Of a stretch of DNA of 64,000 nt, positions 17,569-64,000 are shown one piece after another. Below the pieces are notes generated by a model. That model ran no database searches, was not told where the DNA came from, and worked only from the letters and a program-made list of their open reading frames with translations. Numbering within the stretch: the stretch's first letter is position 1; every line of letters begins with the position of its first letter. Both the position numbers and the translations under genes were made by a program. Source of the stretch: Candidatus Parcubacteria bacterium (GTDB lineage Bacteria > Patescibacteriota > Minisyncoccia > Minisyncoccales > JAGMDC01). Location: assembly GCA_023128895.1 (NCBI GenBank), contig JAGMDC010000002.1, positions 17,368 to 81,367 of the forward strand, in the 5' to 3' direction.

Positions 17569-17979
17569 TCAACTTTCCTTCTTTTCTTCTGATGGCTCAT
17601 CTTCTTTCGGTTCTTCTTTTGGTTCTTCTTTTGGTTCTTCTTTTGGTTCTTCTTTTGGTTCTTCTTTTGGTTCTTCTTTTGGTTCTTCTTTTGGTTCTTC
17701 TTCTTTTTTCTTGCTCTTGCCGTGCTTTGGTATTTTTTTGCCCTCTATTACCCCTTCTTTAACTAATAAATTATGAACGGTGTCAGAGGTTTGCGCGCCT
17801 TTGGAAATCCAGTATTTTATTCTTTCATCTTTTAATTTTTTTTCTTTTGTTATTGGATTGTAAAATCCTAAAATTTCCAAAAACCGCCCTGTTTTGGCAG
17901 AATTTCTTTTATCTGTTACTACAACGCGAAAAAACGCTTGATTTTTTTTGCCTGTTCTTAAAAAACGAATAACAATCAT
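17569..17979 (-). CDS. rpsP: 30S ribosomal protein S16 with a (PKEE)n C-terminal tail
   Basis: MIVIRFLRTGKKNQAFFRVVVTDKRNSAKTGRFLEILGFYNP is a canonical S16 core. The tail is about 8 PKEE repeats. Confidence 0.9.
   Translation of the reverse strand: MIVIRFLRTGKKNQAFFRVVVTDKRNSAKTGRFLEILGFYNPITKEKKLKDERIKYWISKGAQTSDTVHNLLVKEGVIEGKKIPKHGKSKKKEEEPKEEPKEEPKEEPKEEPKEEPKEEPKEEPKEDEPSEEKKES
17607..17703. repeat. 12-nt tandem repeat (ggttcttctttt) x ~8 inside rpsP
   Basis: Perfect tandem copies are visible in the sequence. They encode the PKEE repeats. Confidence 0.9.
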
Positions 17980-19596: not shown

Positions 19597-20040
19597 GTGA
19601 TAAAAAAAATGGAAGAAGAAATAGAATTGAGCCGAATTGGGGTATCTTTACCCTCAAGTCTATTGAATAAGCTTGACGGAATATTAAGAGGGAGAGGATA
19701 TTCATCAAGGTCGGAAGGGATAAGAGACGCAATCAGAGCATATATTCTGGAATACGAATGGATGGAGCGCGAAGCGGGTGAAAAGGTAGGAATTATAACT
19801 TATCTTTATAGCCGCGACAATCACGGAGAAAAAGGAATAGGCGATAAACTTACGAATGCAAGGAATTCTTTCTCGGAAATAGTGATGTCAACCGAGCGCC
19901 TATTTTTGGAGAAAGGAAAGGTATTCGAGACAGTGAGACTAAAAGGTAAAGCAGAAAGTATGAAAAATCTGGCGGAAAGTATAATGAGTCTGAAGGGAGT
20001 AAAGTATGTGAAACTGGCCACAACGCACACAGATATATAA
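19597..20040 (+). CDS. NikR-like ribbon-helix-helix (CopG family) regulator
   Basis: 147 aa (GTG start; alternative ATG at 19609). RHH motif RIGVSLPSSLLNKLDGILRGRGYSSRSEGIRDAIRAYI plus an ACT-like C-terminal domain. The NikR metal-binding His cluster was not seen. Confidence 0.55.
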   Translation: MIKKMEEEIELSRIGVSLPSSLLNKLDGILRGRGYSSRSEGIRDAIRAYILEYEWMEREAGEKVGIITYLYSRDNHGEKGIGDKLTNARNSFSEIVMSTERLFLEKGKVFETVRLKGKAESMKNLAESIMSLKGVKYVKLATTHTDI

Positions 20041-20050
20041 AAATAAAAAA

Positions 20051-20078
20051 TGGGAGAATTTTCTCCCGATTTTTTTTA
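20051..20078 (+). terminator. terminator after the nikR-like gene
   Basis: GGGAGAA..TTCTCCC hairpin followed by a T-run. Confidence 0.55.
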
Positions 20079-20096
20079 TGAAAGTAGGTGCGGGGG

Positions 20097-20124
20097 TTGA
20101 CAAAAATACTAAAATTGCTAATAT
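20097..20124 (+). promoter_or_regulatory. strong sigma70-type promoter of the tRNA-like RNA
   Basis: GGGGG-TTGACA, 16-nt spacer, TGc-TAATAT (extended -10). Confidence 0.6.
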
Positions 20125-20236
20125 CCATAATGCGTATGTGCCTGCCATATCGCCCTTTGTCCCTGCCAGCAGACTCCGCGCTCGGGGGAGCGTCACCTCC
20201 TAATGACGAAATCATTTCCCCCGAGTGCCCATAAAC

Positions 20237-20308
20237 GGGCCTGTAGCACAGTGGTAATGCAACCGGAGTTGCACCCGGACAACGCAGGTTCGAATCCTGC
20301 CAGACCCA
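20237..20308 (+). ncRNA. tRNA-like RNA with a canonical elbow and acceptor but a non-canonical anticodon arm
   Basis: GGGCCTG/CAGACCC acceptor (C4-A69 mismatch). U8, A14, G18G19 and T-arm GCAGG-TTCGAAT-CCTGC are present. The anticodon region gives only a 4-bp CCGG/CCGG stem with an 8-nt loop AGTTGCAC, or alternatively a TGCAAC-CGGA-GTTGCA hairpin. Confidence 0.5.
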
Positions 20309-20372
20309 TTAGTTCTTATTATTTATATTTTCAGTCAGAGCCGATTCAGAACCGGGCATTTAGCGTTTAAGT

Positions 20373-20402
20373 GAGGGAATTTACATTTTTCCCTCTTTTT
20401 TC
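20373..20402 (+). terminator. terminator of the tRNA-like transcript
   Basis: GAGGGAA-tttacattt-TTCCCTC followed by TTTTTT. Confidence 0.6.
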
Positions 20403-20433
20403 TTTGGCAAAATTACTGTATTATTAAAATATA

Positions 20434-20898
20434 ATGGTAAAAGAATCAAAGAAACAATCAGAAAAACAAGCAAAGAAAAAAAGACAAGAAACAGCAATCC
20501 AGAAAATTGTTAATCATTATTTTTATACAAAAGGGTTAAGTTTGGAAGAACTCAAAAAAGACACAAAAAAGAAAAAAATAATTTACTCCAGATTTACGCG
20601 TCCGGCAAAACAACTTTTGGAATTAGCCGGCACCGTTACTAAAGCAAAAAAAGCCATTACAACTGTGTCGCGATGGGCAAAATCCAGGAATTTGGATTAC
20701 GCTATTGAAACAGTTTTCAAAAAATGGCTGGAACTGGACCGATTAAAACCCAAAGAAATTGTCAAAAAACCATTTTATCGCAACGATCCGATGGTGTGGT
20801 CAGAAGCAAAGAAAAAATGGTATGTTATTGACAAAGACGGCAGATGGCTGGAATTCGCGGATAAAAAATCAGAAATAAAGTGGAAAATCGTAAAGTAA
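20434..20898 (+). CDS. hypothetical lysine-rich protein
   Basis: 154-aa ORF with coding-like composition. No motif recognised. Confidence 0.4.
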   Translation: MVKESKKQSEKQAKKKRQETAIQKIVNHYFYTKGLSLEELKKDTKKKKIIYSRFTRPAKQLLELAGTVTKAKKAITTVSRWAKSRNLDYAIETVFKKWLELDRLKPKEIVKKPFYRNDPMVWSEAKKKWYVIDKDGRWLEFADKKSEIKWKIVK

Positions 20899-27455: not shown

Positions 27456-27557
27456 AGTGTTGATTAATATTCCATTATATCCCAATATAAACAGAAACAC
27501 CAAATTAAAAAACGCCCGCAATGGGCGTTTTTTAATTTTCAATAACGAACCCTGATA

Positions 27558-27667
27558 TCTGGCGGCGACCTACTTTCGCGGAAAACCACTATCATCGGCC
27601 CTAATGGATTTCACTTCCGAGTTCGGAATGGGATCGGGTGGAACACCATCGGTATTACCGCCAAATA
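27558..27667 (-). rRNA. rrf: 5S rRNA
   Basis: Minus sense reads TTTGGCGGTAATACC...CCCATTCCGAACTCGGAAGTGAAA...GTAGGTCGCCGCCAGA. Flanked by an extended processing stem. Confidence 0.85.
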
Positions 27668-28081
27668 TCAGGGTTCTATGGTTATTAATTGCCAGCTAAA
27701 GGAGTTTTAATATGATTTATTAGTACTGCTCGGCTAAATGTTTTACAACACTTACACCTGCAGCCTATTAACCTCATCATCTTTGAGGAATCTATGAGTC
27801 CTGATCTTAGGATAGGCTTCGTGCTTAGATGCTTTCAGCTCTTATCCTTGCCCAACTTAGCTACCCAGCGATGCGCCTGGCGGCACAACTGGTACACCAG
27901 AGGTTAGTTCACTCCGATCCTCTCGTACTAGGAGCAAATTCCTTCAAGACTCGACGCCTGCGGTAGATAGGGACCGACCTGTCTTACGACGGTCTGAACC
28001 CAGCTCGCGTACCTTTTTAATTGGCGAACAGCCAAACCCTTGGGACCTTCTTCAGCCCCAGGATAAGATGAGCCGACATCG

Positions 28082-28353
28082 CAATCATCTATTATTACTA
28101 ATAGTTTGGACTATATCTTTACCCAGCCATAATTTTTACAAAACTATGATTGGGATTGGCGTATTATAATAGTTTGATTGACACTACTATCCCTCAACAT
28201 AATTGTTGAGAAGTCTCTACGGGGTCATTACCTAAAATAGGTAAGACTTCCCACGGTATTGTCCATTAGTTTATTATAATGGATTCCACCGTTATTAGCC
28301 AAATTTTTGGTACAGCATTACTGCTGTAGCACCCCGATTTGTCGGTAAATTTG
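28082..28353 (-). mobile_element. ORF-less group I intron at 23S position L2500 (E. coli numbering)
   Basis: Splits the conserved GGCACCU|CGAUGUCGG. The 5' exon ends in U and the insert ends in G. 272 nt. Core is paralogous to the second insert (gactatatctt.accc, acggggtc, acttcccacg). Confidence 0.7.
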
Positions 28354-28404
28354 AGGTGCCGAACAGAGCCGTTGATGTGGACTCGCGGGCTCTACCAGCC
28401 TGTT

Positions 28405-28683
28405 CATTCTAGATTAGAATAGACTATATCTTCACCCGCTAAAATCTTAATTTTAACGGGGACGGCGTATCAGCAAGGGTTTGCCTCGCTCTGCTTAGTT
28501 AAGCAAGTCGTTACGGGGTCAAGAAGAAAATTTAAAAAAATTTTCTTCCGACTTCCCACGATATTCCATTGAAAACCCCATTCATATTCAAAGGTTCATC
28601 GTTATAAGCCGTATTTTTTATCTGTCCTTACGGACAGAGGGGACAACAACCCTCTTACCGTTGTTGAACAACGGCGTGGGTCT
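28405..28683 (-). mobile_element. ORF-less group I intron at 23S position L2449
   Basis: Splits the conserved CCGGGGAU|AACAGGCUG. The 5' exon ends in U and the insert ends in G. 279 nt. No ORF. Confidence 0.7.
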
Positions 28684-30706
28684 ATCCCCGGGGTAACTTT
28701 TATCTGATAATCTTCCCCGATTCTATTAACCAGGGTCGGTTCACTAAGTTCTGCTTTCGCAACTGCTCGGCATATCCGCCTCGCAGTAAAGCCGGCTTAT
28801 GGCTTTGTCCGATCTTTCCGATTTCCATCCGGAAATAGCCGACCTTTAAGCGCCTCCGTTACTCTTTGGGAGGCTAGTGCCCCACTAAAACTGCCCAGCA
28901 CCCACTGTCCCCAATATAAAATCGGGTTAGAATCATCATTTTGAAAGACGGGTGTTTCATTGGCGACTCCGCTCGTTCCGAAAAACGAGTTTCAAAGTCT
29001 CCCCGCTACGCTACGCATCCAAAACAATAACCCAATGAGAACTTACAGTAAAGCTCCCGGGGTCTTTCCGTCTAGCCGCAGGTAACCGGCATCTTCACCG
29101 GTATTGCATTTTCACCGAGCACCTTGTTGAGACAGTTCCCAAGTCGTTAAGCCATTCATGCGGGCCGTTAATTAAACGGCAAGGGATTACGCTACCTTTG
29201 GACGATTATAGTTATCGCCGACGTTCACTGGCGCTTCAATCGCTCAGCCCGAGCACTCAATAAATTGAACGCTTGGACCGGCAACATTGACGTTCCAGCA
29301 CTGGTCAGGCCTCAGCCCCTATACATCCTGTTACCAGTTAGCAGGGACCTGTGTTTTTGATAAACAGTCGCTTGGGAGTCATTAGCTGCGCCCCAACCAT
29401 ACCGAAGCACGGTCAGGGAGGTCTTATTCCGAAGTTACGACCACTGATTTGCCGAGTTCCTTAACAAGGTTTCACTCGTTCACCTTAGCGCATTTACGCT
29501 TACCCACCTGTGTCGGTTTGCGGTACGGACCAAATACATAATTAGCTCCTAAAAAACTTTTCTTGGAAGCTTGCTCGTCTAAGTTCCCCTGCCCGAAAGC
29601 AGAGTTCCTGCTAATTCTTGGAAATCCTCAAATCAGCAACAGAAATCCGATAATCTGCTTAGATTACTAAACTTCGTCATTTTTTAGAATTACATATCTG
29701 GGGGCCGGAATATTAACCGGCTGTCCATCCCCCCTACAACTTCTTGCAGGAGGTTAGGCCCGCCTAACCCTTGGCTGATTACCATTGCCAAGGAAACCTT
29801 GGGTTTTCGGTGTCGCGCAAACTCTGCGCGATTGCGGTTACTCATGCCAACATTCTCACTCCTTATCGCTCCACTGTTCTTTACAAAACAGCTTCACAGC
29901 AATAAGGACGCTCCCCTACCACATCGTTGTCAAACAACGATGTTCTTATCTTCGGTATTGAGCTTAGCCCCGTTAAATCTTCGGTGCAAAACTCCTTAGT
30001 TAGTAAGCTATTACGCACTTTTTAAAAGATAGCTGCTTCTAAGCTAACTTCCTAACTATCAGAGGAATTTTACCTCCTTTCACACTTAGCTCAAATTTAG
30101 GGACCTTAGATAAAGATCTGGGCTGTTTCCCTTTTGACCATGGAGCTTAGCCCCCATAGTCTGACTCCTTATGTTAAAAATATGCCGGTATTCGGAGTTT
30201 AGTTAGAGAATCCGGATAAAATCCAAGAAACCCCATCTAGTGCTCTACCCCCAGCATCCAACATAAAGGCTAGCCCTAAAGCTATTTCGGGGAGAACCAG
30301 CTATTACCAAGCTCGATTAGCTTTTCACTTCTTACCACAGCTCATCCCAGAGTATTGCACGGCTCACGGGTTCGGGCTTCCCCGAGCACTTATTGAACGT
30401 AAACTTTCGCTTATGTTCACTAAGTGCTCGGTTCACCCTGGCCATGGCAAGCTCGCTTGGCTTCGGGTCTTACGCATACCACGAATCATTGCAAAGCAAT
30501 GAAATTCGCGCTTTTAACACTCGGTTTCCCTATGATTGTGTCCCAAAAGGACTTAATCTGCGATACGCGTAAAGTCGTTGGCTCGTTCTACAAAAAGCAC
30601 CCCATCACCCCCACACCTATTAAGCGTTTACGCTTAATAGGTGTGGGGGCTCTGAGTCATTGTAAGCAAAATGGTTTCAGGTTCTATTTCACCGCGATTA
30701 CCTCGC

Positions 30707-30747
<41 letters not shown>

Positions 30748-31457
30748 GATATCAAGTATTTAGCCTTGGCAGTATAGTTCTGCCTGCTTCCCTCAGGGCT
30801 TTCGTTTCCCGAGGTACTCAAGTATAGACACTAAAGCATATAATGATTTTCGCCTACCGGACTATTACCGTCTCTGGCAGTCCTTTCCAGGATCTTTTGG
30901 CTAATCATCAATTACTCTACTCTAATTAAATAGATGCGTCTAACTTACAACCACCAGCTGCGCCAAAAGGCGCGGCTGATTTTGGGCTGTTCCCTTTTCG
31001 CTCGCCGCTACTAAGGGAATGCGCCATTGTAAACAATGGCTTTGTTTTCTTTTCCTCCGCTTACTGAGATGTTTCACTTCAGCGGGTTTGCTCGCGCCGC
31101 AAGCGGCGCGTAACGCTGTTTTCACAGCGCTGGGTTTTCCCATTCGGACATCGCCGGGTCAAAGGTTGGTAACCACCTCACCGGCGCTTTTCGCAGGCAC
31201 CCCACGTCCTTCATCGCCTTGATATCCCAAGGCATCCACCATTTGCCCTTATTTTAATTACCTTTAGCTAGCAATTAATAACCACTATTTTAATTTTGTT
31301 CTCCATATTTAATTTACAATGTCCTTTCCTATCAAACAAATCAAACAAAAAATCGCTCCTGCAAGAAAGCGATTTTCTGGAAACAAAAATCCCAGAAATT
31401 TACCCGCTTTCTTTTGATATATTCAAAATGGTGTCTTTCTTAAACATTTCCATTTTT

Positions 31458-39726: not shown

Positions 39727-40740
39727 TTAATTTCTGGCTTGCTGTTTTAGACCAAACAAAACTTTCCCTGCTGCCCAAATTCTCCTTCTTAAGATAATAA
39801 ACAACGCTCCTATCCAAAGGACAGCAATAATCGTTTTCCAGGGAAAGGCCCAAAACCTTATCTGCTCTACAATTGGCTGGTCACTGCCAGGCACATTCAA
39901 GACCATTATCGCTGTATGGGGACCGAAACGGAAATTGCGCTCAAAAAATGATTCATCCTGAAAAACTTTTACATTAATATTGCGGGTGCGGTTAGGCAGC
40001 AAAAATCTCTCAGGCAAATCGGCCCGGGCAATAGATTTGCCGAACATATTCTGAATATCCACAAATCCATTGGCTTTGAAGTGATAAATGCCTGTATTGT
40101 CCACCTTCGCGAAAAGCTCTTTTACAATATTCTCAAACACGCCGGCTTCCGCGAAAGGAAGAATTTTTTCTAACAATCCAATTGAATCAGCGTCTTTCAG
40201 CTCAAATAATTGGATATTTGCCTGGTATAACTCTCTGTCTCCGTCTAAACTCAAAATGGGTATCTTAATAAAAAACAAAACGCCCAGTTCCGGCAGCATT
40301 CTGGGGCCTTGTTCAGTAAAATAGTATTCCGGCACCACTGCTTGAAAGCGCATCATTACAAAATAGGAGCCCGGGGACACATCCGCTGGCGGCTCTATTT
40401 GAAAATTGATTTGCTTCTTTCCGTCCGGCTCAAGGATAAAATCCATATTCTCTTCTATCTGAAACCACTTCGCGGCATTGAGAGCAGGTTCAGCCATAAC
40501 AAACTCAATATCATCGGAATCCTCTTTTAAATCCCAGAGTGAAAGCTGAATATGGACCGGAAGGGCAACGCTTTTTGAGGTATTAAAAACAGCCAGATTA
40601 TCTTTATAAGAATCACCTGCCAAAATACTTAAATCAAAAAGGTTTTTGGTTGTGGCAAGCCCTATTTCAGTTGCTTGCGCGTTGCCGCCCAAAACCAGAA
40701 AAAAGACAATAATAAATGTAAGTATGGTAATTTGTTTCAT
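39727..40740 (-). CDS. CscA-like (DUF916/DUF3324-type) membrane-anchored cell-surface protein, copy 2
   Basis: 337 aa. Signal peptide; C-terminal FWAFPWK plus a TM helix and RRRIW. Its start overlaps the giant gene's stop by 1 nt. Confidence 0.4.
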   Translation of the reverse strand: MKQITILTFIIVFFLVLGGNAQATEIGLATTKNLFDLSILAGDSYKDNLAVFNTSKSVALPVHIQLSLWDLKEDSDDIEFVMAEPALNAAKWFQIEENMDFILEPDGKKQINFQIEPPADVSPGSYFVMMRFQAVVPEYYFTEQGPRMLPELGVLFFIKIPILSLDGDRELYQANIQLFELKDADSIGLLEKILPFAEAGVFENIVKELFAKVDNTGIYHFKANGFVDIQNMFGKSIARADLPERFLLPNRTRNINVKVFQDESFFERNFRFGPHTAIMVLNVPGSDQPIVEQIRFWAFPWKTIIAVLWIGALFIILRRRIWAAGKVLFGLKQQARN

Positions 40741-43700
40741 TAGAATTCTGGGGTAACGATGTATATAATGGTTGTTTTATAAGGACCGGCTGACTGGGTG
40801 GCTAAAACCGACGCCCTATAAGTAATTGTTGTCGCGTCATTGGTAACCGGGGCGGTTGATTTTGCCACAATATCACCCGGCGCCTGGCTTGAACCAACAA
40901 AACCGGCGTATTCATTCGCGGCAAACTGCGTCAGGTCTGCATCACCTGTATTATATCCCCAGCCGCATTGAGTATTATCAATGCAGGTTCCTGTCCAAAC
41001 CGTTGGAACAGCGTTTGTTCCTGCCCAATCAGATATAGTCACGGAAGAATAAGCAGTATGGCGCATATTGTCTGTTTCATAGGCAGTGAGATTATAGCCG
41101 AATGTCGCGGTTGTGCTTACGGTAAGAGTGGTCGTGGCAGTAGCGGTAAAGGTATTAACGCTGTTTAAATCAAGACTTTTAGAGGCAGCATCCAGGGTAA
41201 ATGACAAACTCGGGAAAAGCCAGCAAGAGCCATTATTGCCGCCATCGGTTGAGGTATTTTCCAGAGAGATATTTGTGCTTGAGCCAGCGCAGCCGGAATT
41301 TGATATATGGGCATAAGTAACATCCTCTGTCCCTTGGTGGTTTATAAGCCATTGGGTAGTAGTTGTAGAGTTAATAATAATCTGGTTGCTGTCAGCGCCT
41401 TGAATAAGGAAATTCCCGTTAATCTGGAAGGTTTTCGTTGCGGTAAACTTCAGGGTCTTACCCGCGGTCGTTGAGGTAAAGTTGTGAAAGGTAATGGCCG
41501 GGGTTCCAGAACCGTCCAATACAGAAATTCCTGTTGTATCAAAAGTTACGGTGCCTGAGTTTGCGGTAAATGTTCCGTTATTAGTAAAGTTGGCGGCAAC
41601 CCGGAAAGAAGCCGTGGAAGAAGCGGAAAATATTCCTTGGGAGGAAATGAGGATAGAACCGTTAATGTCAAATACACGGTCATTGGAAGTTTCATTGTCA
41701 AAGGTAATGGTCTGGGTTCCTGAATCCCCCAGGGTCAGGGTGCCTGAAATAATAATATCCCCTGTCCCGGCATTCGGGGTAATGGCGCGGGTGGCAGCCC
41801 CGTCTGAATTATTAAATTTCAAATTATTAAATGTCCAGTTGTTCGCGCCGGAGCTTGAGCCGAAAGTTTTATTGAGAGCCACTATCTGCTCAAATGTGCC
41901 GCTTGTTAAAGTCACTGTTCCTGCCCCTGTAATATTTCCTTTCGCCGTCACATTATTGGTTCCTGCCAAAGTGCCGCTGGTAACAGTAAGGTCGTTGCCA
42001 GATTCAATATCTACTCCCAAAGTAAAGGTGCCTGTGCCATTGATAATAAGATTATTAAAAGCATTAGAGCCGGTCATAGCGGCAGAGGCCAAGGCCGTTA
42101 CTCCTGAGCCGGAAGTGTACTCAACCGTTCCGGTTGATGCGGTAAAGGTGCCGCCGCGGGTCAATGGCGTGCCGGACCCGGTGAGCGTTAAGGTATTTGA
42201 GCCATTAGCTGAAAGGGTTTGACTAACATAAATATTGACGCTGGCAGCTTTGACTGAAGAACCAAGATTAATAACTAAGGTTGTGCCATTGATTTCCACT
42301 GCTCCTAAGTCATCAATAGCGGCGGCGTTAGTCCAGGTATATGGTCCAGTAGTGCCGTCAAAAATAAAAATGCCCGTGCCGCTGGTAAAATTACCATTAG
42401 CATTGATTGCCAAATTCTTGTCTAAATTAATATTATGAGCGCCCTGGCCAAGGGTTCCAAAATCAATTGTTAAATCGTTATTGACTTCAAGAGCCGAAGA
42501 TAAATTCCAAGTAGCAGTACCTGAAGTTTGACCAAAAGTAAGGTTATGGAAAGCCGAGCTGCCGTTTAAAGTTCCTGAAAGGGTTTTAGTGTCAGCAGCA
42601 GCGTCAAAGGTTACTGTGCCTGAACCGTGAGTGAACGCTCCGCTGTTTGTCCAACTGCCACCTATTGTAAAGGCGGCTGAAGGAGCGGCTGAGAAAGTGA
42701 CACCAGCGCCAATGCTGACATCATTGTTAATGTCTAAAATCCGATTATTAGTATTGTTGTCCACTGCCAGAGAAGTGCCGGTGTTAGTCAAAGTTAAATC
42801 ATTGGAAACAGTAAATGTGCCGGTATTGGTACCGTTAAAGGTAATAGTAGGGGTTCCCGCGCTGCTGTCAAAAATCAAGTTGTAAAAAATCCAATTATCG
42901 GCTCCTGCAATTTGAGGGCCAAAGCTCTTGCTTGTGCCAACGCTCTGCTTAAATGTATTGGTGGTGGTCATACTGATAACGCCGCAGCTTGCCCCGCATT
43001 TGACATCGCCGTTGGCTGTGACATTAGCGGTTCCGCTTGTGGTATTAAAAATTCCATTGGTCATTGTCAAATCTCCAATAATAGTCATTGTGTTGGTTAA
43101 AGGAGACCATTCGCCGCTAACGCCGCTAAAAATGACATTGGAAAAGGAAGAAGAACCAGCATTGACGGTATGGCCGGCGTCAACAGCGTCAAAGGTTACT
43201 GTGCCTGAACCGTGAGTGAACGCTCCGCTATTGGTCCAACTGCCACCTACTGTAAAGGCGGCTGAAGGAGCGGCTGAGAAAGTGACACCAGCGCCAATGC
43301 TGACATCATTGTTAATGTCTAAAATCCGATTATTAGTATTGTTGTCCACTGCCAGAGAAGTGCCGGTGTTAGTCAAAGTTAAATCATTGGAAACAGTAAA
43401 TGTGCCAGTATTGGTACCGTTGAATGTAATAGTAGGTGTTCCCGCGCTGCTGTCAAAAATCAAGTTGTAAAAAGTCCAATTATTGGCTCCAACAATTTGA
43501 GGGCCAAAGCTCTTGCTTGTGCCAACGCTCTGCTTAAATGTACTTGCGCTGGTCAAACTTATGGTGCCGCAGCTTGCTCCGCATTTGACATCGCCCTTTG
43601 CTGTAATGTCATTTGTGCCAGACAAAGTGCCGGCAGTCATAGTCAGGTCAACATCAATAATAGTACTGTCAGCAAAGGACCAGCCGCCGTTTGTCCCATT

Positions 43701-46700
43701 GAAAATTATGGTATCAAAGTTTTCGCCGCCGTCAGTAATCGTATGGCCTGTTGCTGTGGCCGTGAAAGTAGTGGTCTGGGGATTGGTCTTGTTAAAAGTG
43801 CCTTCATTGTAAAAATCGCCGCCAACAGAGAGGGCGTTGGCGCCCATAGTAAGAATGCCTGTCCCCTCAATATGGATATCTCCGTCAACATTAGTATCTG
43901 TGCCGTCATTGGACGGAGAGGTTGTCACAGTACCGCCCGGTTCAAATGTATCAGTTGTCCAGACATAGAGTTTCCTTGTGTCGCTAACCACTAAGTTATA
44001 TGTTCCTGAAAGGTCGGAAGTAAAACCAATTTGGGCGTCAGTGCATTCAATTCCGGTGGTAGTGCTGTTATTGTCGCAATCCGCTAAATTCGCGTTTGTC
44101 ACGCTGCCTGTATGCTCGTTGCGGATAATGACCCGATTCTGGTAGAGGTGAAGTCCTGTACAGTCGCCGCCGGTACAGCCATCGCCGTACTTAAGAACGA
44201 TTGTCCCCTTCTCGCCGCCAGTTGCTCCGTTAATCCAGATAGTTAGGACATCGCCAGCGCTCGGTGTTGTCGTAACGCTGATTGACCAATTGCCAGAAGC
44301 GTCAGTGCCGTTAGAATCCGAAAAAGCAACACCTGTGGTGGAATTGACAAGCTTTATAGCGCCGCCGCTGGTGTTGAGAGTATTGCTGCCCTCATCAGTA
44401 TAAGCTACGCCTGAAACAGTAATGCCAACGCCGAAATTCCAGTTTTCGTTATTGCCTCCATTATCATTTGTTCCGTCAGCAGCTTGAATTGTATCGCCTG
44501 AATTAGCATTAGAGTATGATACAGAAACATAAGAAATAGATTCAGTAGCCGCGGCGTTTAAATTCAAAAGCCATTGTGTAGTAGGTGCTGATGGGGCAAG
44601 AGTTAAAAGCTGGCCAGAAATGCCTGTCAAAGTCAAGGAACCTCCTGAAACAATTGTCTGGGTAATGGCAACGTCGCTTTCAAATGTAATAGTTCTGGCA
44701 GTAGAAGTAGTGATGGACAGGTCATACCATGAATTACTGCTGTTGATTGTCTGCGCGCCGGCGCCGTTAAAATTCACTGTCCCGCTGTTATGGGTAAAGG
44801 CATCGTTATTAGTCCAGTTGCCTGCTACGGCCAAAGAAGAAGGAGCAACAAATGTGTGAGTTCCTGTTCCGCTGCTAGTAATTAAAAAGTTTCCTCCAAC
44901 ATCAGTGTTCCCTCCGGAAGTATAGGTAACAGTGTTATTGTCAGAAACGTTTCCAATGGTCAGATTATTATATTTATTAGAACCTGTGAGAGCTGTAATT
45001 GTGGTGGCAGATGTTCCCTCATAAGCCACTGTTGAAGTTGAAGCAGTAAAAGTTCCTTTATTTGTAAAAGGCGTACCAGAGCCGGATAAAGTCCAGGTTT
45101 TAGAGCCGGCATTCAAAATATGGCTTGATTCAATAATAAGCAGATTGGAAACAGATATTGCGCCTGAATTTTGAGAGGCTGAAGTTCCTGAAGTGCTGCC
45201 ATCGCCAAAAGAGAGAGAAACAAATGTCCAAGCGTTGCTGCCGCCAAAATTACCGCTGCTGATGAGAGTAAAGATAGGCCTGAGAAAATCAGAAACGCTT
45301 TCTTCTCCTTTTCCTTTATGCACTCTTTGGGGAACTGATTTGTCAGATATCTGTCCGTCTCCTAATTGGCCGTTTCCAGCAACTCCCCAGCAATAGGCGT
45401 TGTCTGCGTTTGACCAAGCGCAGCCATGATAATAGCCCGCGATAATGGTTTTGATGTTGGTTAAATTGGTGTTGTCATGATCGCCAGTTACTGCCTCGCC
45501 TTTAAGAACCCTGACCGGAGTTGTTTTATCTAATGTTGTCTGTCCGTCTCCTAAGCGGCCGTTTGCAGGATATCCCCAGCAATAAGCATTGCCTGCGTTA
45601 GAAACAGCGCAGGTATGATGATAGCCCGTGCTAATGCTTTTCGCATTGGCAAGCCAGTCAGTATCGTAATCGCCTGATACTGCCTCTCCTTTATGAACTC
45701 TTTGGGGAACTGTTTTGTCAGTTTCTTGTCCGTCTCCTAAGCGGCCGTCTAAAGCATATCCCCAGCAATAAGCGTTGCCTGCATGTGAAACAGCGCAGGT
45801 ATGACGATAGTCCGCGCTAATGCTTTTCACATTGATAAGCCAGTCAGTATCGTAATCGCCTGATACTGCCTCTCCTTTATGCACTCTTTGGGGGATTGAT
45901 TTAATTGCTGTCTGTCCGTCCCCTAAGCGGCCATTTCCAGCATATCCCCAGCAATAAGCGTTGCCTGCATGTGAAACAGCGCAGCTATGATTAGCACCCG
46001 CGGCAATGCTTTGCACATTGGCAAGCCAATCAGTATCGAAATCGCCGGTTACTGCCTCTCCTTTATGCACTCTTTGGGGGGTTGTTTGCGGAGTTTCAGT
46101 TTCTTGTCCGTCTCCTAATTGGCCATATCCAGCATATCCCCAACAGTAAGCGTTGCTTGCGTTTGACACAGCGCAGGTATGGGCATTAGCCGTGCTAATG
46201 TTTTTCACATTGGCAAGCCAGTCAGCATCGTAATCGCCTGATGCCGCCTCTCCTTTATGCACTCTTTGGGGGACTGATTTGTCAGCTGTCTGTCCGTCTC
46301 CTAAACGGCCATCTGCACCATCTCCCCAACAGTAGATGTTATCTGCGTTGGAAACAGCGCAGGTATAACCATTACGAGCGCTAATGGTTTTGACGCTGGT
46401 TAAATTGATGCCATCATGATCACCGATTACTGCCTCTCCTTTAAGAACCCTGACCGGAGTTGTTTTATCTACTGTTGTCTGTCCGTCTCCTAAGCGGCCA
46501 TTTGCAGCCATTCCCCAGCAATATGCGTTGTTTGTGTTAGAAACAGCGCAGGTATGATGACCTCCGGCGCTAATGATTTTAATATTGTTGAAAAAATCAG
46601 CAACAGCAGTATCACTGGTCGCTGCCTCTCCTTTATGCGCTCTTTGGGGGATAGACTTATCAGTTGTTGTCTGTCCGTCTCCTAAGCGGCCGTTTCCAGC

Positions 46701-49700
46701 AACTCCCCAGCAATAGGCGTTGCCTGCGTTGGAAACAGCGCAGGTATGATGACCTCCGGCGCTAATGGGTTTAACATCGCCCAGCAAATCCATGTCAGCA
46801 ATATCACTGGCTGCCGCCTCTCCTTTAAGAGCCCTGACTGGAGTTGTATAGTCTCCAGATGTTTGACCATTCCCTAAGCGGCCATTGTCAGCAGCTCCCC
46901 AACAATAAGGATTGCCTGCATTGGAAACAGCGCAGGTATAACCATTACCCGCGTTAATGATTTTAATGTTGGCAAGATGAGTGCCGTCATAGTCGCCTGA
47001 TACCGCCTCTCCCTGGTGCACTCTTTGGGGGTCTGATTTGTCAACTTTCTGTCCGTCTCCTAATTGGCCATATAAAGCATCTCCCCAGCAATAAGTGTTG
47101 CCTGCGTTGGAAACGGCGCAGGTATGGTAACTTCCGGCGCTAATGCTTTTCACGTTGGCAAGCCAAGTCTCGGTGCTGTCATAATCGCCTGATACCGCCT
47201 CTCCTTTATGCACTCTTTGAGGGACTGATTTGTCATCTGCTATCTGTCCGTCTCCTAAGCGGCCATCTTCAGACTCTCCCCAACAATAAGCATTGCCCGC
47301 ATAGGAAACAGCGCAGGTATGGGATTTTCCGCTCTCATAGCCAGCTCCGGCACTAATGCTTTTAACGTTGGCAAGCCAGTCGGTATCAAAATCGCTTGAT
47401 GCCGCCTCTCCTTTATGAACTCTTTGTGGGACTGATTTGGTTTCTGCCTGGCCGTCTCCTAATTGGCCATATAAAGCATATCCCCAACAGTAAGCGTTGC
47501 CTGCATTGGAAACAGCGCAGGTGTGGTAATCTCCGGCACTAATGCTTTTCACATTGGCAAGCCAGTCAGTATCGAAATCGCCTGATGCCGCCTCTCCTTT
47601 ATGCACTCTTTGAGGGACTAATTTTTCAGTTGTCCCGCCGTCTCCTAACCGGCCATTTCCACCCTCTCCCCAGCAATAAGCATTGCCCGCATTGGAAACG
47701 GCGCAGGTATGGTAACCTCCGGCACTAATGCTTTTCACATTGGCAAGCCAGTCAGTATCGAAATCGCCTGATGCCGCCTCTCCTTTATGCACTCTTTGAG
47801 GAACAGATTTTTCAGTTGTCCCGCCGTCTCCTAAGCGGCCGTTTCCATCACTTCCCCAGCAATAAGCATTGCCCGCATTGGAAACGGCGCAGGTATGGTA
47901 AGCTCCGGCGCTAATGGTTTTAATGTTGGCGAGGTGGGTGCCGTCAGAAAAAGTAAGAATGCCGCTTCCATCAGCAGTTCCTCCTTTTACGGTAAGGTTG
48001 CTGGTATTGGACAAAGTGCCGGCCGTCATTGTAAGATTACCATTTATAATCGCAGAATCTGTGAAAGACCATCCGCCATTGGAACCGCTGAAGATGGCAT
48101 CTTCAAAAATGTTTTCTGTAATCTCAAAACCGGAAGCTGTGGCGGTAAAACTAGTATCTTGTCCTGAAGATTTAGAAAAGGTTCCGTAGTTTGTATAGTC
48201 CCCTCCTATAGAAAGCGCGTTAGCGCCCATAGAAAGAGCGGCGCCTGATTGAATTAAAAGGTCTCCGTTAACATTAGTATCTGTGCCGTCATTGGACGGA
48301 GAGGTTGTCACAGTACCGCCCGGTTCAAATGTATCAGTTGTCCAGATATAGAGTTTCCTGGTGTCGCTAACCACTAAGTTATATGTTCCTGAAAGGTCGG
48401 AAGTAAAACCAATTTCAGTGTCTTCACATTCAGTTCCGGTGGTAGTGGTGTCATTGTCGCAATCCGCTAAATCCGCGTTTGTCACATTAACGGTATGTTC
48501 ATTGCGAATAATAACCCGATTTTGGTAGAGATGAAGGCCTGTACAGTTGCCGCCGGCACAGCCATCGCCGTACTTGAACACAAGCGTGCCGTCGGCAGAT
48601 GCTCCGTCAATCCAGATAGTAAGGACATCGCCAGCGCTCGGTGTTGTCGTAACGCTGATTGACCAATTGCCGGAAGCGTCAGTGCCGTCAGAATCCGAGA
48701 AAGTATCGCCGGTAGTAGAATTGACAAGTTTGATAGCGCCGCCGCTGGTGTTGAGAGTATTGCTGCCCTCATCAGTATAAGCTACGCCTGAAACAATAAT
48801 GCCAACACCAGATGTAGTTAGCTTGGGATAATTAGTATAAGTGGTAAAAGAAACGCCGTCATCTTCTATCATCCGAAAGCAATAAGCAGTAGAATCTGGC
48901 GCTCCATTATTTTTAATTACCCAATCCCATTCTCCTTTACTGGTACTGGTAATCTCTGCTGGATTTGCCACCGAACAATTTTCCTCTTCATATGATTCAA
49001 GAGCATTACTTTGGGAATCAAGCAGCGAGGAAGTAATCGGATCTCCATCAGAGGGCGTGGTATTACTATTATCACCCTTCCATAGAGTAGCTTGAGTTGT
49101 GGTTGATTCCTGGCTTTCTGAAGTCCCAATTTCTGGTTCCGGGTAAGCATATTTTCTGACTTTGACCCAATCAGCCTGGAGGTGGTCTGTTATAGCTGGA
49201 GCAAAACCATGGGCTTGCAATAGAATAGGCGCGGTTGCGGTTGAACTCGGACAATAGCTTGAATATGTTTCCTTATGTATTAAAGTATCTCCTTGCCAAT
49301 ATTCAGCAAAATTCCCTCTGCTAAACATTTTTATTTCATACCATGTATCAAAAGCAATAATAAGATCACGGTTCACAGAGGTTCCACTTTTTTTCAGCTG
49401 AAAATATTTTCTTGCAACCTCCCAAGCAGGCGCATAGTTCACAAATTGATAAAGATAATTATCAGTATCTTTTAAACCAATAACTGTGTAATCGTTGTTT
49501 CCTGTTTTTATCTTTGCCTTTATCTCGGTAATGTTTCCAAAAGCAAAAGAGTTATTAGTAGTTATCTTGGCTTCGCTTGGATCTCCACTGTTATGAAGTT
49601 TAGCTAAACTATCTGCGACAGTGATGCTTCCATTTCCAACAGTGGCACTGGTCCATTTTGTTCCATTTATCGCGGCATCCGGGAAATCATCAAAGAAAAT

Positions 49701-52700
49701 AAAAGTATTGTCGCCATTGGAAGCGGAACCGATAGTGGAATGTTCGTAGTAAATATAAATATTTTGCAAAGAATCAAGATTGTCCTTAACTTCTACCCAG
49801 AAAGTAGCAGTCTGATTGGGAGTTGTACCTTCTGTTTTTTCCAGCCAATAATCCAGCAAAGTGGTCCCATTATCATCAGCAAATCTAACATCGTCAAAAT
49901 CAGGCTGGCAATTTCCTTCAAGGTGAAAATCATAATTGCTGGCTCCGTTTGATTCCCCTACTTTTATTTTTATTTGATAATCAGCTCCAGCTCCCGATGA
50001 GCCTGAAATCGGTATTTTTTTTCTATAAAGCCAATTAGTGTCATACCAACTGGTGCTGGTAATACTATCCATATCATACCAGGTCTCATCTCCTCCGCCG
50101 CAAGCTGCTCCTTGCATTTGGGCATACTGAAGTTTTAAAGACTGGGTCTGGGCAAGCAAATTCGCGCTTTGAACCTGATTGCTTATTCTGGCTCTTATTA
50201 TCTCGTTATCAGCCACTCCGCTAATTTCTATGTTTGGATCCGCTTTAGCGCTTCCTGGCTGGACATTATTAGCATTATCATACCAGCGATAAGTGGTTTG
50301 ATTAAAAGTGAGAACACTTATGGATTTGGAATTTTTATTATTATTCTCATTGCCCTCGGTAATATTGCCATCCCTGTCAATATGAACATAAATGTCATAA
50401 CTTCCTGAGCTCGTTGGTGTCCAGTTTACCTGGACTGTTTGAGTTATTCCAGAAATTAAATTAGTAATCTCTTGAGCTGAACCTATTTGATTGCCGGTTC
50501 CGTCAGGATCTCCATCATAGAATTTGACTAAAATTTCTGGCTCTTTGTAGGCGCGGAACCAACAATCCCTATAAGAATCCAGCGCGACCCAACCTGAACC
50601 TCCGTCCTGTGCTGCATTATTATCCGGGAAGTCTGAGCCAGTATCTACGTCTGCTGTCCAGCACCAGCAATTGGTAGTACTTGTTCCAGTGCCTTCAGCA
50701 ACAATCCAATATTTTGTTCCGTTGCTTAAGGTAGGAATAGTGGAAAATTCAAAATCATACCAGGTATAAGTAGCGGGACCGCTGGTGGGCTGGAATGTTG
50801 CCGTTGCTATAACATTACTGTCATCAGGCAAATTTCCGCTGTCTCCTTGAATCTTTATTGTCAAAGTGCCTGAAGTGCCGTAAGTTTTAAAATTTAAAGC
50901 CACTCTAGACAATCTAAAATCATATGAAGGAATAAAAGATTGAGCCGTATCTGTAGTTGAATATACATAATAACAGCCGCTTATAATAGCGCTATCATTT
51001 TCCTTATCCCAATGCTGGTCAGTAAAAATCTGACCATAATGACTTCCCCCGCTGTTTCGAACAGTAGCTGAGATAGCAATTTCCTCATTAGCTTCAGGAT
51101 TTTTATCACTAAAAACAATATCGCTTGAATTTAAATAAAAATCAGGAAGGATAGTAAGAGTAGTGGTTCCAGGAATTAGCACGGCAATATCTGGAGAAGC
51201 TGTCCCGCTTGATAGGGTAACATCGCTGGCAGGGGTAGTAATTTGAATCTCCAGGGTTTCACCATCAGCGGCTGATGAGCCAACATCTAAAACTACATAA
51301 ACACACATTGATTGAGTAGTAGAAATCGCCGCTGATGAACCGGTAAATGTTGAGGTACCATTAGCTCCGCTGAACCCATCCGTATCAGTCGAGCCAAATT
51401 GGGATTCAGATCCGCCATAGTCTTCACTCGCGCAATCATAGGGAGTTGTGGTATCAAATTCATAAAATATTTTAATATTGTCAAGATTAGTCTGGGCGTT
51501 AACCGTGCCTTGTTCAGTAATAGTAATACCGGTAACATTGCAAGACCCAATATGGTGCTTGATAACAAAAGTTCCCACACATTCATTAGTGCTTGGAACA
51601 GCCAAATCCGCAACCTGGGAACGAACTGTCGTAACCTCAACATCGCAATGAACCTTTACTTCCACATAGTCTGTTTTGAGAAGATTAGCCGTGTCGCCTG
51701 CTAAGTCTGCATGGGTAGCAACTAAATGAAGATAGCCGCTGGCGTCAATATAATTTGAAAAATCGGATGTATAGATTTTGGTAATTTCCTGGTCAGCTGT
51801 CTTATTAGCATGAGAGCCTACTACTTCCCAGCTAGGGGTACCACTAAAATTCCATATGTACAAATAAGATGTTTTGCTCACCGTATGTCCTTCCCATTTA
51901 ACCTCCATCTTATAAATGGTGCTGGAGCTTTCGGCAATATCGAATTTAAAGTGATGCGTGGCCGAATCAGACCTATCGCCATTGGTTTCATATCTGATAT
52001 CATTAGAAGATTCTATTTCTGTATAAGAAGTTACCTCTGTTTCATCTGTTATCGCTGGACCAGAAGCGGGAGGATGGGTTGCCTCGCTCATTTTTTTATA
52101 AAACCACTTATTGGTTCCTCCTCCACTGGTAAAATTATAAGTAGTGGTCGCATCCGAGGCAATCTGCCACTGCCTCGCCTCCTCAAAAATAGCTGTCTGA
52201 GGCCAGGCCTCGGTCAATTTTAATGGGCCTAATAAATAAAAATAAGGGCTAACATCAGGCGCGTCAAAGGTATATTCCAACTCATAGCTCTCCCCTGCTT
52301 TCCACTGAACATCCCAAACAATACTCTTTTCTTCTTGAACTATGGAGGTTGAACCTCCATAGTTCGTTTCTTCTATCTCAAAACTCGCTGGAATTTGTTC
52401 TATAACCTGCCCGGAAAAATCTTGATTCGCTTTGATTTTCAAAGTCATTTCATAATCCGCCAACGGGTAAATTCTGGTTGGCCCGACTCTTTCCACGTCA
52501 AAAGGCACAAGGTCGCGAGTTTCAAATTGGTCAGTAACTTCGTAGCCGTTATCAAGATTGGTTAATTTTATTTCATACACCCCTGTCCCGGCAATTTGGT
52601 AATAAGCAAAATAATCCGGTTTATCAATAACATTGTTTGGCCCGCATTCTTCTGACATTTGAACTTCCGGGCTGGTTACCCAGCCTTCGGGAGAAATAAT

Positions 52701-63172: not shown

Positions 63173-63248
63173 TGGTGGACCTGAGCGGATTCGAACCGCT
63201 GACCTCCTCGTTGCAAACGAGGCATTCTGCCAACTGAACTACAGGCCC
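63173..63248 (-). tRNA. tRNA-Ala (UGC), CCA encoded
   Basis: GGGCCTG/CAGGTCC acceptor with G3-U70. Anticodon arm CCTCG-TTTGCAA-CGAGG. T-loop TTCGAAT. ACCA end. Confidence 0.9.
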
Positions 63249-63260
63249 AAAATTATAAAA

Positions 63261-63399
63261 TGTGGGCGAGGAAGGAATCGGAGAGTTGCCCGAAGGCGGT
63301 GTTTCACCTCGCTTTGCTCGGCGAAACGCGGGGGGAGGTCCTCACCACACCACACCATACATAAAAATTTATGAACACCTGCAGTGTTCAAAGTTTTTA
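63261..63399. repeat. GC-rich tRNA-flanking element B with a duplicated tRNA-Ile 3' end
   Basis: 63261-63282 is identical (22 nt) to 63400-63421, the T-loop-to-3'-end of tRNA-Ile. The interior starts gagttgcc, contains cctcgctttgctcggcg and ends in the hairpin GAACAC-ctgca-GTGTTC. Homologous to 14455-14597. Confidence 0.8.
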
Positions 63400-63401
63400 T
63401 G

Positions 63402-63474
63402 TGGGCGAGGAAGGAATCGGACCTTCGACCTCTGCTTTATCAGAGCAGCGTTCTAACCACTGAACTACTCGCCC
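63402..63474 (-). tRNA. tRNA-Ile (GAU)
   Basis: GGGCGAG/CTCGCCC acceptor. Anticodon arm CTGCT-CTGATAA-AGCAG. T-arm GAAGG-TCCGATT-CCTTC. Confidence 0.85.
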
Positions 63475-63724
63475 AAATTACTACCTTCATTCTATCAAAA
63501 ACAAAAGACCTGTAAAGGTCGCTAGTAACAAAACGCGCCTAAAAGCGCGTTTTGTTATAAATATTTTCATTAGTTAGTTTTTTAGAGTTGTCCCGGATTG
63601 TCTTTTTAGTGTTCAATCAACACTATATAAGGTTGAAAATAGAATTCTCAATTTTCGACCTTAGTCAACGCTAAATTAAATCTTGAAGATTTATAAATAA
63701 ATCATTCAAAAATTTAATTTTAAT

Positions 63725-64000
63725 ATGTTATGATCCACGCACAGGTTCTCCTACGCGTGCCTTGTTACGACTTAGTCCTTCTTACTGAATCCACCTTAGA
63801 ACCTCGCAAGGAGGCGCTTCGGGTGTTCCCAGCTCGCTTGACTTGACGGGCAGTGAGTACAAGACTCAAGAACGTATTCATCGCCACATAGCTGATTGGC
63901 GATTACTAGCGATTCCGGCTTCATGAGGTCGAGTTTCAGACCTCAATCCGAACTGAGACCGGTTTTAAGGGATTAGCTCCGCATTACTGCTTGGCAACCC
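63725..64000 (-). rRNA. rrs: 16S rRNA, 3' portion (continues beyond the window)
   Basis: Minus sense reads ...AAGTCGTAACAAGG...GTAGGAGAACCTGTGCGTGGATCA. Upstream conserved blocks include GTACACACCGCCCGTCA-type sequence (cttgtactcactgcccgtcaag). The exact 3' end is uncertain. Confidence 0.9.

Follow-up and report, generated by a model that had tools for sequence, protein, structure and literature searches.

A putative small-RNA gene with an embedded tRNA-like module and an anti-Shine–Dalgarno-like hairpin apex in a Candidatus Parcubacteria genome

Analysis of a 64,000-nucleotide (nt) stretch of DNA from the metagenome-assembled genome of a Candidatus Parcubacteria bacterium (assembly GCA_023128895.1, contig JAGMDC010000002.1, positions 17,368 to 81,367 of the forward strand; hereafter the window) concerned a unit at positions 20132-20402 in which an element resembling a transfer RNA (tRNA) lies between a promoter and a terminator. 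The feature was confirmed as real; rather than an ordinary tRNA, it represents a variant on the theme of tRNA-like small RNAs. Taken as a whole, the unit is best explained as a small-RNA gene with an embedded, non-decoding tRNA-derived module, an account given about an even chance of being correct; that such a non-decoding module lies inside a small-RNA gene is in itself probable, and the specific mechanism considered below, a processing handle combined with an anti-Shine–Dalgarno (anti-SD) seed, is a tentative reading of the sequence.

Relatives of the locus were found through its flanking genes, which code for arginyl-tRNA synthetase (ArgRS) and for a protein of 154 amino acids (aa). Three co-occurring strains (L031, L032 and L034) carry an identical unit, and the sequence of a fourth (L033) ends within a variant unit. 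L036, with an overall DNA identity to the window of ~95-96%, has, like L033, two tandem units ~380 nt apart, each of those in L036 comprising promoter, leader and a tRNA-like of the window's kind (type 1). In L037 the promoter is kept, with type 1 reduced to 15 nt (GGGGAUAUAGCACAG) and fused to a tRNA-like of a second kind (type 2), the 'anticodon arm' of which is a 7-bp stem with an AGUA tetraloop, followed by an AU-rich box. L128, L129 and L130, in which efp follows the 154-aa gene as in most Patescibacteria, have the promoter, a covarying hairpin, the AU box, a 3' hairpin and the terminator with no tRNA-like, and L127 has the AU-box core and 3' hairpins only, the small-RNA promoter and 5' hairpin being missing. 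An earlier note on this DNA, made by a model from the letters alone, had put the tRNA-like at the centre of the transcript; the relatives show instead that the surrounding gene is the conserved unit. To judge from these comparisons, the conserved entity is a candidate small-RNA gene that only a narrow set of close relatives possesses, and the tRNA-likes are optional cassettes within it that have apparently undergone duplication, recombination, truncation and deletion between lineages separated by very short evolutionary distances. A general tie between the element and the 154-aa gene was considered and ruled out: upstream of that gene in 80 more distant metagenome loci the promoter, T loop and AU box were missing, no tRNA gene was called in 79 of the 80, and the neighbours of other relatives differ.

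The near-consensus promoter and the terminator named in the earlier note are both present where it had located them, and between them would delimit a transcript of ~270 nt. Taken by itself, the bare consensus match of the promoter lacks significance, since 1.5 kb contained 5 promoter-like sites where 3.4 were expected. The positions of the -35 and TGn -10 elements are kept in both copies of L036 and in L037, L128, L129 and L130 while the spacer sequence differs, and boxes held at fixed positions beside a varying spacer were taken as evidence of function. The terminator, which a pattern scan missed because its loop is longer than 8 nt, is kept in L036 and L033.

The leader folds with a free energy of -37.3 kcal/mol (z = -4.2) and contains the nested hairpin that the earlier note had described, with UCACCUCCU exposed as it had said. 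In the window this hairpin folds at -30.1 kcal/mol (z = -5.5 to -6.1) with CCUCCUAA in its apical loop. The same architecture, built from different but compensating stems, recurs in L036 copy 2, L037, L128, L129 and L130, the stem of L037 being wholly different (CCAGGGAUUGG/CCAAUCCCUGG), and the six versions give z values of -4.7 to -6.2. In an alignment of the six, the anti-SD-like block is the best conserved block of the entire leader. TCACCTCCT occurs once in the window against an expectation of 0.21, and at least one match arises in 19% of shuffles; the caution that this 9-mer could be chance holds for the window alone, where it is not significant, and is countered by the homologous hairpins of L037 (the identical 11-mer GTCACCTCCTA, with GUCACCUCCUA in the loop) and L129 (TTCACCTCCTAA; UUCACCUCCUAA), which have differing stems but carry the block G(U)UCACCUCCUA at their apex as well. 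The block is degenerate in L128 (TTCGCCTCAT) and in L036 copy 2 (GTCACCTTTT; CACCUUUUUGACC), where CCUCC is gone. Its structural context varies, the block lying in the loop in the window and L037 and forming part of the inner stem in L129, which points to the sequence itself, and not its pairing inside the hairpin, as what is constrained. Searches of Rfam with the leader and small RNA gave no match at E ≤ 1 beyond noise; identity with SpF41 was rejected, as its scores of 20-28 bits compare with a gathering score of 52 and reflect merely a tRNA-like-plus-terminator shape. Also rejected was a minus-strand gene using AGGAGGTGA as its Shine–Dalgarno (SD) sequence: the sole such open reading frame (ORF; 19939-20196) is antisense to a nikR-like gene, and the organism is not SD-using. 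As a separate observation, the region 3' of the AU-box core in L127 (L127:1455-1540) contains a small hairpin, CUGAC-UCCUCCG-GUCAG, with CCUCC again in its loop.

The AU box is identical at 22 of 22 positions in L036, L037 and L128 and at 19 of 22 in L129, and its core (TAGTTCTTATT) is present in L127; it is fully kept in L037 although the coding DNA of window and L037 is ~80% identical. Downstream in the window, the sequence AGCCG/ATTCAGAACCGGGCA aligns as an internally deleted counterpart of the intact type-2 module of L036 copy 1 (AGCCGGACTAG...GGTTCGAATCCAGAACCTGGCTA), and, as far as the alignment indicates, the window unit resembles the product of recombination of two such units at their repeated AU box. 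Two other roles for the box were rejected: docking on the tail of 16S ribosomal RNA (rRNA) so as to rebuild an anti-SD in trans (duplex -9.5 kcal/mol, against -10.3 +/- 2.7 kcal/mol for shuffles), and service as a phage attachment site (no match in 2.9 million viral contigs).

The tRNA features that the earlier note had listed for the core (acceptor stem, U8, A14, G18G19, T arm) were all confirmed, as was its aberrant anticodon region. The core is 72 nt long with 7/5 acceptor/T geometry, and scores 49.9 bits in Rfam RF00005 (gathering score 29), where the window's genuine tRNAs score 51.9-74.5 bits (tRNA-Tyr 51.9, tRNA-Trp 55.5). All nucleotides of the tRNA elbow are intact, including C48, the 15:48 pair and a UUCGAAU T loop within GUUCRANYC. 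The anticodon arm departs from the canonical 5-bp stem closing a 7-nt loop with U33 and R37: a 4-bp CCGG/CCGG stem is topped by an A.A pair, and in the RF00005 alignment, which also marks C4.A69 and C13.A22 as mismatches, an extra G is inserted between positions 32 and 33, 5' of U33, with U33-UGC-A37 still within the loop. The cloverleaf (-21.7 kcal/mol) and an alternative fold with a UGCAAC-CGGA-GUUGCA hairpin (-22.1 kcal/mol) are isoenergetic. ARAGORN labelled the core 'tRNA-???' with a 2-base anticodon, and neither this program nor Rfam, two of the checks that the earlier note had proposed, resolved it as an ordinary Ala or Cys tRNA; both identities are ruled out by the loop insertion, by the missing G3:U70 determinant of tRNA-Ala (A73 is there) and by the missing U73.

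The core was probably derived from a copy of tRNA-Ala(UGC). Among the window's five tRNAs, the genuine tRNA-Ala(UGC) is its best pairwise match (56 identical positions, score 23, against at most 16.5), and the two have in common the 5' acceptor strand GGGCCUG, U8, A9, G10 and the loop UUGCA. An encoded CCA is missing from four of these five genuine tRNAs too, so that maturation of the RNase Z/CCA type is the norm here and its lack in the core is not aberrant. A scan for the combined loop and T-loop pattern in one genome per species, covering 185,579 bacterial and archaeal species, matched 30 loci and yielded no counterpart of the core: in 25 of them the pattern fell in the variable arm of a tRNA-Ser or tRNA-Pro gene, and the other five had no tRNA gene called by ARAGORN.

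In the relatives the modules vary in an uneven manner. The two type-1 copies of L036 (both ~49.6-49.9 bits) differ only in the T stem, which reads GCAGG/CCUGC in one and AUGGG/CCCAU in the other, a change involving three fully compensatory pairs. L036 copy 1 is followed by a type-2 tRNA-like that forms a clean cloverleaf at minimum free energy, with a 6-bp acceptor, D arm, 6-bp T stem and UUCGAAU loop, and with a branched arm replacing the anticodon loop. The type-2 copies of L036 and L037 have the acceptor, 5' D side and T loop in common, but not the anticodon arm. Intact tRNA-likes thus keep the acceptor/T-arm helix, the D/T-loop nucleotides and the discriminator, while the anticodon arm is free to be an 8-nt loop, a tetraloop or a branched arm, a pattern that fits recognition by RNase P, RNase Z, the CCA-adding enzyme and TruB, and not decoding. 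The decay among relatives that the earlier note had contemplated is seen in the truncated L037 module and its absence from L128, L129 and L130, but not in the conserved promoter, intact helices and T-stem compensation; such truncation and absence are not what the retention of an essential tRNA in close relatives would give, and they argue against an essential or quadruplet-decoding tRNA. Separately, a 125-nt insert was observed between the type-1 tRNA-like and the AU box in L036 copy 2 and in L033 (L036:3448-3572 and L033:6261-6386, minus strand); it folds, with weak support (z = -1.9), as a four-way junction with a 7-bp closing stem UGCUUCA/UGGAGCA, and may be a third tRNA-like module.

A possible target for the hairpin apex was suggested by the neighbouring genes of the relatives. 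The 16S rRNA of the window ends in GGAUCA/UAACAUAU without CCUCC, in agreement with the earlier note, and loss of the 16S anti-SD is known for about half of Parcubacteria (PMC9297842). An SD-like match of even a 4-mer lies upstream of only four of 41 long ORFs of the window (background 8.5%); A/U-rich sequence was seen to precede start codons throughout. In L037, L128 and L129, by way of contrast, the small-RNA promoter stands back to back with the strong promoter of a divergent operon (L037:7570-8240, L128:114-727, L129:35-992) coding for hydrophobic peptides of 45-70 aa and a lipoprotein of ~158 aa; in seven of its nine called genes the AUG is preceded at 6-9 nt by a strong SD, which is frequently extended (for example AGGAGGUGA, AAGGAGGUAA and AUAGGAGGUAA). 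Some 25 housekeeping genes at the same three loci show weak 4-mer matches at most, and polX, rplT, rpmI, infC, smpB, argS, rpmF, nusB, efp and the 154-aa gene have no SD beyond a weak AGGA upstream of rplT in L037. The small-RNA gene is thus associated with SD-bearing genes in the relatives. Just 22 homologues of the lipoprotein were found among 5.8 billion proteins, so the operon matches the small-RNA gene in its narrow distribution. Its position is taken by a nikR-like gene in the window and L036.

From these observations a function for the small RNA can be proposed from sequence. A strong sigma-70-type promoter would yield a precursor of ~270 nt, the tRNA-like top half of which (acceptor/T-arm helix and D/T-loop elbow) would be read by RNase P, RNase Z and the CCA-adding enzyme, with the anticodon arm free to degenerate. 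Predicted cleavage by RNase P and RNase Z would then make the module a processing or stability handle, parting a 5' hairpin RNA of ~105 nt from a 3' RNA with the AU box. The apex UCACCUCCUA would act as a candidate seed for pairing with SD-type sequences, its natural targets being the adjacent divergent SD-led membrane-peptide/lipoprotein operon of the relatives; transcription, seed pairing and any regulatory outcome are likewise predictions. Because this operon would have been replaced by the nikR-like gene in the window's lineage, the small RNA may here be an orphan. In structure the module agrees with a handle, having an intact top half and a degenerate anticodon arm within a longer, predicted transcript.

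A number of observations weigh against this scheme. The same small RNA occurs in L128, L129 and L130 with no tRNA-like, so a processing handle is not required, and the internal deletions and fusions resemble decay. Given the ~95-96% identity of window and L036, the identity of their tRNA-likes says little, and a single recombination patch donated by another tRNA-like, instead of selection in place, could have produced the T-stem compensation. The anti-SD block has disappeared from L036 copy 2 and from L130. Neither pattern search nor tblastn recovered the SD-led operon in the 64-kb window, and none of the 22 lipoprotein homologues came from NCBI, where the window's assembly is deposited; the proposed target is on these grounds missing in this organism. 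An improbable variant holds that, in a lineage without an anti-SD and without general SD use, the small RNA, dedicated and highly expressed, would be the sole partner of the SD sequences of this operon, no other SD-led operon having been seen in these genomes. It would then serve as a repressor seed or, more radically, as a docking adaptor in trans; if an adaptor, it would use its attached tRNA-like modules as handles for processing or for ribosome binding.

Of the competing explanations, the main one, though unlikely, is that the modules are decaying tRNA pseudogenes. A surplus copy of tRNA-Ala(UGC) and another tRNA would have landed within or next to a highly expressed small-RNA gene and would now be disappearing through point changes, internal deletions and unequal recombination, the promoter and terminator persisting because they serve the small RNA and not the tRNA-like. 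The defects of the core relative to a working tRNA-Ala (the extra loop base, the lost G3:U70 and C4.A69) and lesions that differ by lineage (L037 keeping a 15-nt 5' fragment, the window a type-2 remnant, and L128, L129 and L130 nothing) would be expected of erratic loss among close relatives, the 79 distant loci with no upstream tRNA gene agree with it, and a further tRNA fragment exists in the genome, a 23-nt duplicate of the tRNA-Ile 3' end. Set against it are the intact tertiary-interaction nucleotides and top-half helices, the three compensatory T-stem pairs between the L036 copies, the perfect minimum-free-energy cloverleaf of L036 type 2, and the retention of acceptor and T arm by the type-2 homologues at ~80% background DNA identity; neither expression signals nor helices have been lost, in that the near-consensus promoter is conserved and all four helices of the core can form. 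A working but unusual tRNA, whether an 8-nt-loop decoder (a quadruplet or +1-frameshift reader of GCA-N, or a triplet reader like yeast mitochondrial tRNA-Thr(UAG)) or an aminoacyl donor for a tRNA-dependent transferase, is a decidedly poorer account. The intact cloverleaf with a score near those of the genuine tRNA-Tyr and tRNA-Trp, the strong promoter, the retained U33-UGC-A37 and the existence of a natural functional 8-nt-loop tRNA (PMC7609411) speak for it. However, the covariance alignment puts the extra base 5' of U33 and not within or 3' of the anticodon; the AlaRS determinant is missing, and the aberrant arm makes anticodon-dependent charging unlikely; in close relatives the module is truncated or absent, and there paired with an anticodon-less type 2; and no tRNA-dependent transferase gene was found adjoining. 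Of the identities listed in the earlier note, the quadruplet and donor roles are accordingly weakened by a module that is dispensable and rearranged, while a regulatory mimic and a pseudogene are both still compatible with the data.

The remaining two accounts concern debris, and both are very improbable. In one, the unit is a relic of an rRNA operon, in which a 16S 3' end with the ancestral anti-SD and a spacer tRNA-Ala(UGC) were copied before the anti-SD was lost: UCACCUCCU lies ~35-40 nt upstream of the tRNA-Ala-like gene, mirroring the order 16S, spacer, tRNA-Ala; L037 reads UGG-UCACCUCCU, near the canonical UGGAUCACCUCCU; and the promoter is strong, as rRNA promoters are. Similarity to 16S helix 44/45 nevertheless ends at 12-13 nt, the motif occurs in L129 without any tRNA-like, and its place at the apex of a hairpin with covarying stems points to a structured small RNA and not to drifting rRNA debris. 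In the other, partial tRNA copies were left by integration and excision of mobile elements at a tRNA gene, for which tandem units and partial tRNA-like fragments at one locus could be cited, were it not that the remnants are internal deletions rather than terminal 3' duplicates, that no integrase or mobile-element gene appears among the Pfam-annotated flanking genes of the examined loci, and that the trailer pattern was not found in 2.9 million viral contigs.

The small-RNA gene with its embedded module was also compared with known systems. The mascRNA/MEN-beta tRNA-like is a tRNA-like processing module, and the leuZ 3' external transcribed spacer is a small RNA from a tRNA precursor. The module here probably works most like processing modules of the mascRNA type, by analogy and without being a member by sequence or geometry (Rfam mascRNA match weak: 18.3 bits, E = 0.89). 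As in that type, an intact acceptor/T-arm top half is coupled to a degenerate anticodon arm within a longer transcript, and the flanking parts, in this case the small-RNA gene, are the better conserved pieces; the differences are a bacterial host of the candidate phyla radiation, no sequence homology, a cleavage that is here predicted, and relatives without the module. G1G2 together with a destabilised acceptor stem mark tRNA-like RNAs that are given CCACCA and then degraded, and the core's own G1G2 and its acceptor stem destabilised by C4.A69 are like these and would suit a disposable processing handle. C-rich-loop small RNAs with an anti-SD seed are represented by RsaE/RoxS, and divergently encoded type I antitoxin RNAs by IstR-1/tisB. 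The likeness to both is in logic only, consisting of an exposed C-rich loop complementary to SD and, for IstR-1/tisB, of the relatives' back-to-back operon of small hydrophobic peptides, mostly with strong SDs; here, by contrast, the seed is the literal 16S anti-SD string, housekeeping genes are without SD pairing, the operon also encodes the ~158-aa lipoprotein, and the pairing is predicted. No homology to the RsaE/RoxS or IstR-1 families was found in Rfam.

Irregular, allo-tRNA-like polycistrons are known from soil bacteria, and with them tRNA-Other of Bacillus cereus (Mukai et al. 2017, PMC5389517). They are alike in their non-canonical arms, often tandem arrangement, apparent position outside translation and proximity to small accessory cassettes. 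They are expressed bacterial genes, and the core is not one of them by sequence or geometry; their own features are 8/4 or 9/3 geometry, long variable arms and normal 7-nt anticodon loops, against 7/5 geometry (6/6 in L036 type 2), an aberrant anticodon arm and another phylum here; and, in contrast to them, no toxin-antitoxin genes were identified. In the Y RNA YrlA the tRNA-like domain is circularly permuted and its acceptor closed, and the gene is sited no more than 4 kb from rsr (Ro60) (Chen et al. 2014, PMC4201824); YrlA too is a non-coding RNA joining a tRNA-mimicking domain to another functional helix, with tandem copies possible, and was ruled out as an identity by the open acceptor, by no TROVE-domain gene within +/-4 kb (Pfam) and by no Rfam match. 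Yeast mitochondrial tRNA-Thr(UAG), a natural cloverleaf with an 8-nt anticodon loop, is essential, conserved and served by a dedicated synthetase (PMC7609411), whereas the core, with its similarly enlarged loop, is dispensable among close relatives and has no recognisable identity elements. One search of the literature on tRNA-like RNAs of the candidate phyla radiation returned nothing relevant, and no described small RNAs were found for this candidate-phylum lineage.

Should its role prove to lie in processing or stability, the module would give the eukaryotic mascRNA principle a bacterial counterpart in a candidate-phylum lineage, and would mean that tRNA genes are recruited and discarded as small-RNA parts over very short evolutionary distances. 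The link between the putative anti-SD small RNA and the SD-led operon, in a lineage without an anti-SD, is the most interesting lead: the back-to-back pair is concrete and testable for the question whether, and by what means, residual SD-like sequences are read in Parcubacteria of this kind. Should the module instead be a pseudogene, it would counsel caution in tRNA annotation of metagenome-assembled genomes and serve as a marker of a recombination-prone locus.

Table 1. Positions within the window of the unit's parts and of related features.
Feature	Position	Strand	Remarks
Promoter	20097..20124	+	-35 TTGACA (20097-20102), 16-nt spacer, extended -10 TGcTAATAT to 20124
5' part of the predicted small-RNA transcript (leader)	20132..20236	+	~105 nt; start placed from the -10 box
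Nested hairpin	20177..20229	+	Outer stem CUCGGGGGA/UCCCCCGAG, inner stem CGUCA/UGACG; A-rich internal loop on 3' side
Anti-SD-like block	20192..20203	+	GUCACCUCCUAA at hairpin apex
Type-1 tRNA-like module	20237..20308	+	8-nt loop A-g-U-UGC-A-C; G3:C70, C4.A69, A73; no encoded CCA
AU-rich box	20309..20330	+	TTAGTTCTTATTATTTATATTT, 22 nt
Probable type-2 tRNA-like remnant, internally deleted	20339..20358	+	Placed by alignment
Intrinsic terminator	20373..20401	+	GAGGGAA / 9-nt loop / TTCCCTC + T6; 7-bp G+C-rich stem
154-aa gene	20434..20898	+	Own TGn -10 element (TGTATTAT, 20417-20424); context, not part of the RNA
tRNA-Ala(UGC), genuine	63173..63248	-	G3:U70, encoded CCA; probable parent type of the tRNA-like
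tRNA-Ile 3'-end duplicate pair	63260-63282 and 63399-63421	-	
16S rRNA 3' end	63723..63740	-	Reads GGAUCAUAACAUAU; anti-SD missing

The lysine-rich 154-aa protein has 3738 homologues and is ~80% identical across Patescibacteria, against ~60% for ArgRS; efp usually lies 3' of its gene, and one homologue is fused to a PolX HHH_8 domain. No sequence match was obtained in Pfam, NCBIfam, PHROG or PDB, and its AlphaFold model (mean pLDDT 78) had no Foldseek match at E ≤ 0.001. The model combines a helical N-terminal half with a small beta domain, and the gene is apparently nearly leaderless, with TGTATTAT 10 nt before ATG.

Several minor observations were recorded elsewhere in the window. The spacer that precedes tRNA-Ala contains, exactly 139 nt downstream of the original, a second copy of the final 21 nt of tRNA-Ile(GAU) together with 2 nt of trailer. 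The 23S-5S pair (27557-31262, minus strand) is unlinked to 16S-tRNA-Ile-tRNA-Ala (63173-64000, minus strand), from which it lies ~32 kb away; the 23S gene spans 3562 nt and harbours a group I intron (28088-28363; Rfam, 56.9 bits). Positions 40740-54632 of the minus strand form a giant ORF (4630 aa), where duplicated matches at 42697 and 43282 suggest internal near-identical repeats, and the homologue of ribosomal protein S16 (17569-17979, minus strand) has a C-terminal tail of eight EEPK repeats.

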